Shown here in pieces: positions 15,653-26,145 of a stretch of 64,000 nucleotides of DNA. The notes beneath the pieces were generated by a model that was given only the letters and a program-made list of their open reading frames with translations, did not search any database and was not told the origin of the DNA. Every line of letters begins with the position of its first letter. Position 1 is the stretch's first letter. The position numbers were made by a program, and so were the translations under genes. Source of the stretch: Octopus vulgaris (taxonomy: Eukaryota). The DNA lies in assembly GCA_951406725.2 (NCBI GenBank), contig OX597819.1:97898001-97962000 (forward strand), read 5' to 3'.

Positions 15653-19339
<3,687 letters not shown>

Positions 19340-19390
19340 GCACACACTTTGCTTAGTTTTAATATAATTTTTCATATATCTTGCATTGTT

Positions 19391-19423
19391 TGTCGACCGG
19401 TTTCGCTTTCGCTATTCATAACA
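19391..19423 (-). ncRNA. Minimal hammerhead motif with A3-U8 core variant
   Basis: TGTT-ATGAATA-GC-GAAA-GC-GAA-ACCGGT-C-GACA. Confidence 0.6.
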
Positions 19424-22400
19424 TTGATATTTAAATACGTATTTTCTTAAGAAGAATTTTTTGTCCATGTTGTACATGAAATTTATGAATGAATGATAGA
19501 ACAAGCAAAAGAATTTAAGGGGAGGGGATTGGTTATCGTTATTATTGTACGCAGGAGAGATAATTGTTCAGCTTTCGGTAATGGGGGTGGGGAATATATA
19601 TACACACAGAAATTTAAAAACGAGAGTAGTGAGGAGAAATATATAGTGATGGGTATGTAATCGTGAATTAAAATATGTAAAGAGATAAAAGTTAGTTATG
19701 CGTGCTTATTTAGACGTGTACTGTATTTTTCGATGAAAAAAGTTTCTTTATTTAAACATTCTTGTAAAGAAATTATATCTTTGCACTATTAGAAGGGAGA
19801 AAACTGTGAATTTTGGTTTGATGTTACTTGCACATTTCTCTGTGTTCACTTAAAGGAATTTATCTGTATTGCGGGAACCAGATCTGCTCTTTATGTAGAG
19901 TGGTTCTCCGTCCCAATGTCATACTCACCTCTCCTGTATAGTGATGTCCACAACCCGAGCATATTATTACTTAGATTAGGTTCTCAGGGGCACAAGTGAA
20001 GTTGGTTTTAATTGTGAACCTCTCTCGTTGTTTGAAAAGGAAATCTGAGCCTTCAAGTAGGTTGGGGCATGTTCCAAATTTTGGGCGTCCATATTTTTTA
20101 ACCGTTTGTTTCGTGGTTGTTGTGTAAAACTTCGCATTTGTGAGAAGTCTCTTTAGCGATTTGTGTTGCTTTTTGTATTTGACGCGTTTATGCGCTTTCA
20201 GGATGTTGTCCATTTTGGGATCTCTAAAGGGAAATTTTGCACAATAGTGTTGTATGCCTCATCGTTTCTAGGGTTGAAGATTGATATATACAGTAATGTT
20301 TTGAGATGAAGTTTGGTGTTAGGTTTTGTTGCCCTTATTGTTTTTATGTCTAATTTCTTGGCACGCTTAATTCCATCGTCTATAAGTGAGGGTGGATATA
20401 GTCTTTCAGTTAGTGTTGTTTTGAGGTCTTGAAGACGAAGGTCCGGGGTAGTTCTATCGGACACTATTGTGCAAATCTTTTTTACCAAATTAAAGGGCAT
20501 ATGTATTTTGATGTGTTTCGGGTGGCATGAGCTAAAGAGGTGATATTGTTTCGAGTCCGTTGGTTTATGACCTCAAAACAACACTAACTGAAAGACAATA
20601 TCCACCCTCACTTATAGACGATGGAATTAAGCGTGCCAAGAAATTAGACATAAAAACAATAAGGGCAACAAAACCTAACACCAAACTTCATCTCAAAACA
20701 TTACTGTATATATCAATCTTCAACCCTAGAAACGATGAGGCATACAACACTATTGTGCAAAATTTCCCTTTAGAGATCCCAAAATGGACAACATCCTGAA
20801 AGCGCATAAACGCGTCAAATGCAAAAAGCAACACAAATCGCTAAAGAGACTTCTCACAAATGCGAAGTCAGTTATAATTTGGTTGTTGACTTTGAGGCAT
20901 TATTGGTTTCCTTCGATGTTATCAATCTTTACACCAACATCCCACATGACTATGGAATAAAAGCAATCAAATTCTGGTTGGAAAAGTACCCCGAAGTACT
21001 CCCGGATCGCATAAATCGGATCTTTAAAATTTATACTTCAGAACAATTATTTCCTATTTGTTGATACCTGTTACCGTCAAGAATCTGATAATGGGTTATT
21101 TTCAATTCACTATATATGCAGTGTCACTTCAAAAATATGGTTATCCTTTTCACCATTACATAAGAGAAAGCAAGAAAAGATACCTGGATGACTGTTTTAT
21201 CATTTGGAAGGAGACCATTGATAAACTTTCGGACTTTAAATCAACTCTAAATGATATAAATAGTAACATTCAATTCACAATGGAATATAACAAAGAACAG
21301 CTTCCATTTTTGAATATTGTTGACGATGGAATTAAGCGTGCCAAGAAATTAGACATAAAAACATATATTAATTCACGATTACATACCCATCACTACATAT
21401 TTTTCCTCACTATTCTAGTTTTTGAATTTCTGTGCATTTTTTTGTCGTCTTCAAAATGTTTCACGTTCTTGTCCCAGTTTGTGTTTTTTTTAACGTTTAC
21501 ATATATACACGGCGGCTACGTATCCTACCTTTTGACCCTATACTGTAAGTATATTACTCTCTAACATTGGTACGACTCGACTACACTGTCTCTCTTTTCC
21601 CCCCTCTCCTACTTTTCTCTGCCTTCACCCTTTGCACTCCCCTTGTTCTATCTCTTTCCCTCTTTTTCTTCTCCTCCCTTGTTCCCCTTTCTTTCTCTCT
21701 TCCTCCGTCCCTCCTCTCCCACATTTCTCTGCCTCTCAGACCTTATACCCCACTTGACCTGTCCCTTTCCCTCTCTTGCTTCTCTCTTCATCTGTCCCTT
21801 TCTCCCTTTTGTGCTCACGTGACCAGCTAGCTACTACTGCCTTTTCGCATCAAGTAGTTGGTGTGACCACCCGTATTTGTTTGTGCTCCGTTTGCCTTCA
21901 GGCACTTGTTCCACAGCCAGCCTATACTCAACTCGTCCTGTCGAAAGACGCTTGTCGTGACGTCCTGGTTTTGTTATTATTGTTTTTACGTTATTTTGTA
22001 TTCTTATCCGTTTTACGTATTTTTGAATTTTTTTCGAGTAACATCGTCCGTTTTTCCGTCACTGTGTTGTATACTTTCGAGGTTTTCTTCCAAGGAATCT
22101 AATGCGACTGGCTTAGATTTCCCTTGGCGGGCTGCCCAGATTGGAGCAATCTCAAGATTAATCAGCCGAAATTGCGAAGATGATCTGGTTCTTGACTGAT
22201 GACTGAGAGCTTCGAAAGTCCCGTCTGTGTTGTTTTTTTGTCGTCTTCAAAATGTTTCACGTTCTTGTCCCAGTTTGTGTTTTTTTTAACGTTTACATAT
22301 ATATATATATATATTCCCCACTCCCATTACCGAAGGATGAACAATTATCTCCTCTGCGCACAATAATAACGATAACCAATCACCTCCCCTTAAATTCTTC

Positions 22401-22488
22401 TACTTGTTGAATCATTCATTCGTAAACTTCACGCACAACGTGGTGAAAAACATCTCTTTAAGAAAATACACATTTAAATAAATTTTAA

Positions 22489-22521
22489 TGTCATGAATAG
22501 CGAAAGCGAAACCGGTCGACA
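22489..22521 (+). ncRNA. Minimal hammerhead motif with A3-U8 core variant
   Basis: TGTC-ATGAATA-GC-GAAA-GC-GAA-ACCGGT-C-GACA. Stem I TGTC/GACA, GNRA-capped stem II, palindromic stem III, GUC triplet. Confidence 0.65.
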
Positions 22522-22651
22522 AACACAATACAAGATATATTAAAAATTATATTAAAACTAAGTAAAGTGTATGCATTTTCCTTCTTTAATTTCTGATATA
22601 TATTATAACTCACCACGGAGAGATAATCGAAATTCCTCCTTTTCTGTTACT

Positions 22652-25550: not shown

Positions 25551-26145
25551 AGCGGCGAACTGGCAGATTCGTTAGCACGCCGGGCGAACTGCTTTGCGGT
25601 ATTTCGTCTGCCGCTACGTTCTGAGTTCAAAATCCGCCGAGGTCGACTTTGCCTTTCATCCTTTCGGGGTCGATTAAATAAGTACCAGTTATGCAATGGG
25701 CTCGATATAATCGACTTAATCCGTTTGTCTGTCTGTGTTTAGCCCCTTGTGGGTAGTAAAGAAATAGGTATTTTGTCTGCCGCTACGTTCTGAGTTCAAA
25801 TTCCACTGAGGTCGACTTTGTCTTTCATCCTTTCGGGGTCGATTAAATAAGTACCAGTTACGCCCTGGGTCGATGTAATCGACTTAATCCGTTTGTCTGT
25901 CCTTGTTTGTCTCCTCTATGTTTAGCCCCTTGTGGGCAATAAAGAAATAAGAAACGTTAGCACGCCGAAAAAGCTTAGCGGTATTTCGTCTGTCTTTGTG
26001 TTCTGAGTTCAAATTCCGCCGAAGTCGGCTATGCCATTCATCCTTTCGGTGGTCGATAAAATAAGTACCAGTTGCGTGCTAGGGTCGGTCTAATCGATTG
26101 CCCCCCCCACCCCAAATTTCGGGCCTTGTGCCTAGAGTAGGGAAA
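25551..26145 (+). mobile_element. Three SINE family B units in head-to-tail tandem
   Basis: Module ggtatttcgtctgccgctacgttctgagttcaaa...cctttcatcctttcggggtcgat...aagtaccagtt occurs three times. Confidence 0.85.

Follow-up and report, generated by a model that had tools for sequence, protein, structure and literature searches.

A minimal hammerhead motif with A3-U8 in place of C3-G8 in Penelope-like elements of octopus

Results

Fragments of a Penelope-like element enclose two copies of a hammerhead motif

The window, by which we mean the whole 64-kb stretch of Octopus vulgaris contig OX597819.1 analysed here, contains a cluster of Penelope-like element (PLE) fragments enclosed by an inverted repeat of 272 bp and 86.8% identity (19337-19602 versus 22306-22577). 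The right arm (22306-22577, forward strand) is a pseudo-LTR (pLTR; 3' UTR), and the left arm, its inverted match (19337-19602, reverse strand), ends in a (TA)n run. Six-frame translation and tblastn placed the decayed 3' end of an ORF at 19780-20433 on the reverse strand, upstream of the left hammerhead. It comprises the reverse transcriptase (RT) thumb, a Cys linker and a GIY-YIG endonuclease, is broken by stops and frameshifts, and matches at 73% (tblastn) the endonuclease of a family copy (L082) that is itself a weak PF01541 match. An inverted duplicate of 20129-20433, 99% identical, lies at 20564-20868 on the forward strand and marks the point at which the inverted arrangement turns round. 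Beyond it, the same two methods identified decayed RT fragments with DVINLYTNIP and YLDDCF motifs (20870-21330, forward strand), matching at 74-75% (tblastn) the RT of copy L105, a weak PF00078 match. Pfam searches of four window ORFs found no domain, and in better-kept family copies the PF00078 and PF01541 matches are weak and below the curated cut-offs.

The arrangement found is that of an endonuclease-bearing (EN+) PLE, with RT followed by a C-terminal GIY-YIG domain in one ORF flanked by pLTRs; it survives as fragments in the window and as an open frame in a sister-family copy described below (L203). A short tail stands at one end only (22578-22650, forward strand) and runs into (CA)n(TA)n(GA)n; the same tail lies behind many family copies, and (TA)n runs adjoin both ends of the cluster. 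One-sided tails, inverted 5'-truncated copies and microsatellite targets are all described for PLEs in the available text of PMC8557442. Both window copies are decayed fossils, lie on opposite strands and probably have no function.

The cluster also contains near-identical internal duplications (20129-20433/20564-20868, 99%; 21437-21507/22233-22303, 100%; 20612-20658/21317-21363, 96%), and its terminal repeats are 13% apart. This may reflect either recent local rearrangement or an insertion built from templates that had already diverged.

Each arm of the inverted repeat carries a 33-nt motif, at 22489-22521 on the forward strand and at 19391-19423 on the reverse strand, with predicted cuts after C22517 and after 19395, respectively. 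Its 25-mer core occurs exactly twice in the window (22493-22517, forward; 19395-19419, reverse), with none expected from 100 shuffles of the window. In the right copy, stem I is TGTC/GACA (22489-22492/22518-22521) and encloses A3 (22493), U4, G5, A6, A7, U8 (22498) and A9, a 2-bp GC/GC stem II with a GAAA loop, G12 A13 A14, and a palindromic stem III, ACCGGT. The left copy differs at 1 of 33 sites, TGTT replacing TGTC such that the stem I junction pair changes from C-G to U-G. These observations bear out the first-pass annotation of this DNA, which had reported ATGAATA in both terminal repeats within an otherwise intact fold, and a C-to-U wobble in stem I as the only difference between the motifs.

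The hammerhead core residues U4 G5 A6, A9, G12 A13 A14, A15.1-U16.1 and H17 are all present. The CUGANGA box is absent, the motif of the window family reading AUGA(A/U)UA, and G10.1 directly follows A9 with no extra nucleotide between them. Two alternative core registers, one taking C22492 as C3 with an inserted A and the other a U as position 3, were rejected by eye because neither gives G8 nor retains U4G5A6. The Rfam hammerhead model had no match on 22440-22580 up to E=10, and across the whole window only microsatellite-driven miRNA matches appeared among the matches listed (150 of 283). Together, the core residues and their setting support the assignment of both sites to the minimal type I hammerhead motifs of PLEs.

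A3-U8 is the normal state of the family

Using the right pLTR as a query against the genome (2.8 Gb, 227 contigs) gave 753 first-look candidates. The motif lies on the sense strand in the 3' pLTR, about 300 nt behind the GIY-YIG domain; endonuclease matches stop about 250-450 nt upstream of it in many family copies, and a colinear protein match was present at 86 of the 204 motif sites in fetched loci. If these copies were merely decayed, the family consensus should be CUGANGA. We looked for such a consensus with stem II held fixed and found 282 genomic matches for A3-U8 against none for C3-G8, and 1,179 A3-U8 matches against 26 for a control when stem II was left free. Leaving positions 7 and 8 free gave 177 matches, with U8 in 94 of the 100 listed (counted by eye) and A3-U8 in 27 of 30 fetched loci. 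The expectation that CUGANGA-based searches would miss the variant was likewise correct: they return no match with this stem II, and Rfam behaves in the same way.

Samples picked independently of the motif gave the same picture. A3-U8 was present in 22 of 28 copies of an old subfamily chosen by their 5' flank (the others being two gapped copies and four with single changes), in 18 of 19 copies of young subfamilies and in 27 of 30 copies picked by their 3' tail; the young sample is what remained of 24 rows once the query, one duplicate and three rows lacking the motif region had been removed. C3-G8 occurred in none of these 28, 19 and 30 copies. Contigs of four other organisms showed no variant of at least 5% at 22493 or 22498. 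At N7 (22497) of these organisms, A>T made up between about a half and three quarters of the depth; changes were also frequent at the stem I site 22490 and at CpGs and, in two of the four, in loop II (22504). Since reads had to be 80% alike, this result speaks for the A3-U8 family only. The family normally carries A3-U8, which is not a product of decay.

Canonical motifs do occur in the same genome. A tandem repeat of ~359 bp (L062-L080), often in head-to-head or tail-to-tail arrays, carries a canonical CUGACGA type I hammerhead with the same ACCGGU palindrome and looks like a non-LTR retrozyme. Scattered, older CUGANGA motifs resembling minimal hammerheads (min-HHRs) were also seen (L206-L222), with clear stems I in L206, L218, L219 and L220. 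As candidate C3-G8 relatives of the family these were rejected, belonging as they do to the unrelated tandem repeat and to scattered old copies: 20 CUGANGA loci had no blastn match to the window pLTR, and 17 CUGANGA sites had no RT or endonuclease match to the family probes. A close C3-G8 relative was therefore not found. With this stem III, the genome holds about 1,180 A3-U8 sites and about 1,260 that are mostly U3-A8, versus 140 CUGANGA, a rough comparison in that the search patterns differ.

Searching the scaffold with other stem III palindromes mostly recovered decayed copies of the same families. A metagenome pattern scan gave 12 matches, which we took as chance, there being no clear stem I by eye and no PLE protein match.

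Related families carry other pairs at positions 3 and 8

Among the A3-U8 subfamilies stem I covaries (TGTC/GACA, TATC/GATA, TGTATC/GATACA, TAGTC/GACTA), loop II takes the forms GAAA, GAUA, GAUU, AUAA or 5 nt, and N7 also varies. With both A3 and U8 excluded from the pattern, a search returned 1,263 sites (control 0), the first 100 of which comprised 94 U3-A8, four U3.G8 and two with unpaired G3/A8. Sister families share U4G5A6, A9, the GC/GC stem II, GAAA and ACCGGU with the A3-U8 family.

One sister PLE family, young and abundant (L121-L130, L173-L205), is U3-A8 with a U3.G8 minority. Its stem I, AAGAAAT/ATTTCTT, is different yet complementary, and its endonuclease is 52-58% identical to that of the A3-U8 family. 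Several copies have open frames of 811-851 aa; in L203 (369-4380) direct pLTRs, spaced about 4.0 kb, enclose an 850-aa frame. Homologues of a sister-family ORF carry PF00078, PF26215 and PF01541, and the named ones come from bivalves or bivalve-symbiont assemblies at 45-50% identity. The other sister family (L253-L282; 42 matches) is old and U3.G8; its loop II has 3 nt, proximal pairing in stem I is weak, and a distal helix of 9 bp is possible. Position 3 in 30 of its loci was T in 26, C in two and A in two, and 15 of the 30 matched protein probes, two of them through a non-element part only.

A FastTree phylogeny was built from the 43 of 54 rows with at least 225 residues, with U3-A8 limited to five and an oyster homologue as root. 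The A3-U8, U3-A8 and U3.G8 families form one clade (support 1.00), within which U3.G8 and U3-A8 group together (0.99). This U3 group is sister to all A3-U8 copies with a support of 0.81, rising to 1.00 without the deepest copy; the window's right copy sits on a long, unreliable branch.

By sequence covariation, the 3-8 pair can form in all of 11 hand-picked representatives (six A-U, three U-G, two U-A), and 83.5% of cells are paired, versus 69.5% in shuffles and 23-41% in slid alignments. G12, A13, A14, A15.1-U16.1, U4, G5, A6 and A9 are invariant, as is stem III, and position 17 is C or U. Compensatory changes were seen in all six stem I columns (69.7% of cells paired). The outer pairs form weakly, as does stem I of the U3 families; the junction pair is unpaired in four of the 11, all from U3 families. 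Stem II (GC/GC, G10.1-C11.1) draws no covariation support because its 2 bp never vary, all 11 representatives being identical there, and its loop changes in both sequence and length (3-5 nt). The representatives are related to one another, were chosen via motif-like patterns and offer about three independent 3-8 states, so we regard the covariation as supportive and not as proof.

Could A3-U8 nevertheless be a single ancestral accident, amplified by transposition, with the copies agreeing by descent and no constraint on pairing? Its single origin on the tree, the small number of independent 3-8 states and the near-neutral decay of inserted copies are what such a history would leave. However, it requires two transversions that by chance re-create a pair, and A3-U8 has survived in subfamilies despite an identity of only 49-64% between their decayed RT/EN copies. 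Moreover, stem I changes in compensating steps and the sister states, U3-A8 and U3.G8, pair too. We consider an accident of this kind very unlikely. Because U-A or U-G occupies these two positions in related families, 3-8 pairing has likely been kept by selection in active elements, and as sequence evidence for this the between-family comparison is stronger than the two window copies.

The two window copies as insertions

The first-pass annotation had seen in the window copies themselves a variant under selection. Covariation of the 3-8 pair across related families is supported; the case for selection made from the two copies is not. Aligned with each other, they show differences at 25 of 164 sites on the 5' side of the motif, at one of 33 inside it and at four of 52 on its 3' side, a contrast between inside and outside that is not significant alone (Fisher p=0.15). 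Among 28 copies selected by the 5' flank alone, the 25-mer was intact in one. The motif's CpG sites, G12 and C11.1 included, had decayed at 17.9% in these copies, and its non-CpG sites differed at 5.3%, the flank at 6.4% (p=0.37). An alignment of genomic copies inside versus outside the motif, which had been proposed as a check, accordingly gave no clear motif conservation. With N7 left out, the non-CpG figure fell to 3.9% (p=0.03; 18 observed versus 27 expected by composition); this slight excess is consistent with flank differences between subfamilies.

That both window copies are intact, compared with one in 28 other old copies, might suggest that the host has exapted this locus and keeps the two motifs by selection. 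We find this most improbable. Quite apart from the Fisher test, the window copies retain six of seven and seven of seven family CpGs, and low local CpG decay may explain their intactness. In addition, the pair was noticed through that very intactness, other intact pairs within 5 kb occur among the genomic matches, and the surrounding ORFs are broken. Selection operated in the source lineage; it did not preserve these insertions.

Predicted folding and a candidate activity

In hammerhead chemistry G12 serves as general base, and the general acid is the 2'-OH of nucleotide 8, positioned by the 3-8 pair. Because this pair holds nucleotide 8 in place, an A-U at 3-8 could preserve the active geometry. 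Przybilski and Hammann reportedly found in 2007 that any Watson-Crick pair at 3-8 is tolerated, depending on context.

Folded on its own, the motif does not exceed its shuffles in stability (z 0.05 and 1.13), and in the optimal monomer structure stem I is extended so as to capture A3/U4. For the right copy, the dimer optimum from RNAcofold (-16.5 kcal/mol, against -4.2 per monomer) is a hammerhead junction whose stem III pairs the two molecules. The junction also forms in the cofold optimum of examples from the GAUA subfamily and the U3-A8 family, and does not in that of the left copy or of the GAUU example. Two RNA copies are thus predicted to pair through the self-complementary ACCGGU to make stem III, in keeping with the dimer model proposed for PLE min-HHRs (PMC4209133; PMC6765202, as available). 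The two window copies cannot be such partners in one transcript, since they lie on opposite strands. Slow cleavage after GUC in the dimer would then process the element's tandem transcripts and might trim or circularise its RNA.

Published work counts against activity of an A3-U8 core. The first-pass annotation took it as established that compensatory swaps partly rescue activity. This depends on context: in the available account of a type III hammerhead subjected to full pairwise mutagenesis, the G3-C8 swap alone rescued activity (PMC9901934). As described in the text available for each, C3-G8 min-HHRs of PLEs also cleave poorly (PMC4209133), and viral hammerheads with a short helix II are called minimally active (PMC13725137).

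We therefore weighed a second reading, in which the fold is retained but no longer catalytic, serving as a structural signal (for example, for RT binding or for pairing two RNAs) while 3-8 drifts among U-turn-compatible pairs. The low activity of A3-U8 and U3-A8 in the mutagenesis just cited (PMC9901934, as available), a stem II of only 2 bp, the weak proximal stem I of the U3.G8 family and the success of Naiad PLEs, which thrive without canonical hammerheads according to the part of PMC8557442 at hand, would all suit it. So would genomic copies that run through the predicted cut site. None of 30 tail-picked copies begins at that cut and one is truncated inside stem III; as a test for a footprint of cleavage this has low power, and under a circular-template model it does not decide the matter. 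Against a non-catalytic fold, G12, A13, A14, A15.1-U16.1, G5, A6 and A9 are invariant and H17 is kept in the 11 representatives, and N7, loop II and stem I turn over around this fixed core, which is the pattern that catalysis needs. The 3-8 pair is, furthermore, described as a feature of the active hammerhead conformation in the portion of PMC3884650 available. On this evidence we judge loss of catalysis unlikely, albeit the most serious of the alternatives.

The reading we favour, with moderate confidence, is that the motif of the A3-U8 family is a minimal type I PLE hammerhead that would cleave itself weakly after GUC as a predicted dimer and process tandem transcripts. Weak, dimer-dependent cleavage taken by itself would be expected with much the same confidence.

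Discussion

The closest known system is the PLE min-HHR of Cervera and De la Pena (2014; PMC4209133, as far as its text and figures are available). It has the same pLTR location behind an RT-GIY-YIG ORF, the same type I topology with a short stem I and, by prediction, the same G10.1-C11.1 pair, the same palindromic stem III implying a dimer, and occurs likewise mostly as single truncated copies and inverted pairs. The 56 representatives in Fig. S3 of that paper comprise C3-G8, U3-A8 (two S. mansoni rows) and U3.G8 (one Saccoglossus row); they include no A3-U8 and no cephalopod, whereas the octopus family is A3-U8. Stem II is 2 bp in the octopus family and long in PMC4209133. The extra base between A9 and G10.1 of PLE min-HHRs is absent from the octopus family, and also from the Marsupenaeus row of the figure.

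Covariation at the 3-8 pair in nature is not itself new. Perreault et al. (2011; PMC3088659) described natural U3-A8 variants, and also 2-bp stems II and weak stems III; the section available names U3-A8 only, whereas the octopus family has a purine at 3 and a pyrimidine at 8. Hence natural U3-A8 is known (from the available parts of PMC3088659 and PMC4209133), and a natural A3-U8 fixed in a family is new as far as we found. Dimer-cleaving PLE hammerheads with a short stem III (Lunse, Weinberg and Breaker 2017, as summarised in the review PMC6765202) likewise combine a small palindromic stem III, a link to PLEs and cleavage as a dimer.

With the EN-bearing Neptune and Nematis PLEs the octopus elements share a C-terminal GIY-YIG domain preceded by a Cys-x4-Cys-x2-Cys linker, (TA)n targets, an inverted 5'-truncated copy and a one-sided tail. 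The Zn-finger-like Cys linker is present; the likeness to Neptune is one of features, our tree holding no named reference elements. The 2017 survey by Lunse reportedly comprised roughly 150,000 hits. It lay outside the reach of our literature searches, which found no paper on a natural A3-U8, and it may already contain one. A literature search for hammerhead and octopus gave none on topic among the matches listed, and a search by term found no natural A3-U8 in the available text of the retrozyme preprint 10.64898/2026.07.22.740005 or of PMC11014351.

We tentatively suggest that this PLE clade may represent a natural mutagenesis series on a 33-nt hammerhead whose stem II has 2 bp, in which position 3-8 has been fixed as A-U, U-A or U.G, with an A3-U8 form that would be active, high in copy number, undescribed in print and missed by CUGANGA descriptors and Rfam. 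If so, a purine-3/pyrimidine-8 pair would join the natural hammerhead core, and searches that rely on descriptors would undercount ribozymes. According to the methods of PMC8557442, searches for the string 'cuganga' underlie claims that hammerheads are missing from some Penelope clades, and these clades could merit a recheck. With three sister families on one scaffold, it could readily be tested whether cleavage or shape is what PLE hammerheads are retained for. The A3-U8 variant alters no mechanism and reveals no host function.

Further features of the window

Directly to the left of the Penelope cluster lies a 3' RT fragment (18596-19226) that is LINE-like by eye and has no Pfam match. Further left, a second inverted repeat (15624-16147/17290-17813; 524 nt, 95%) surrounds ORFs of 230-299 aa (15720-17048) and is probably another retroelement insertion with an inverted copy. 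To the right of the cluster, a 103-nt repeat occurs three times at 25598-26082, together with further short repeats.
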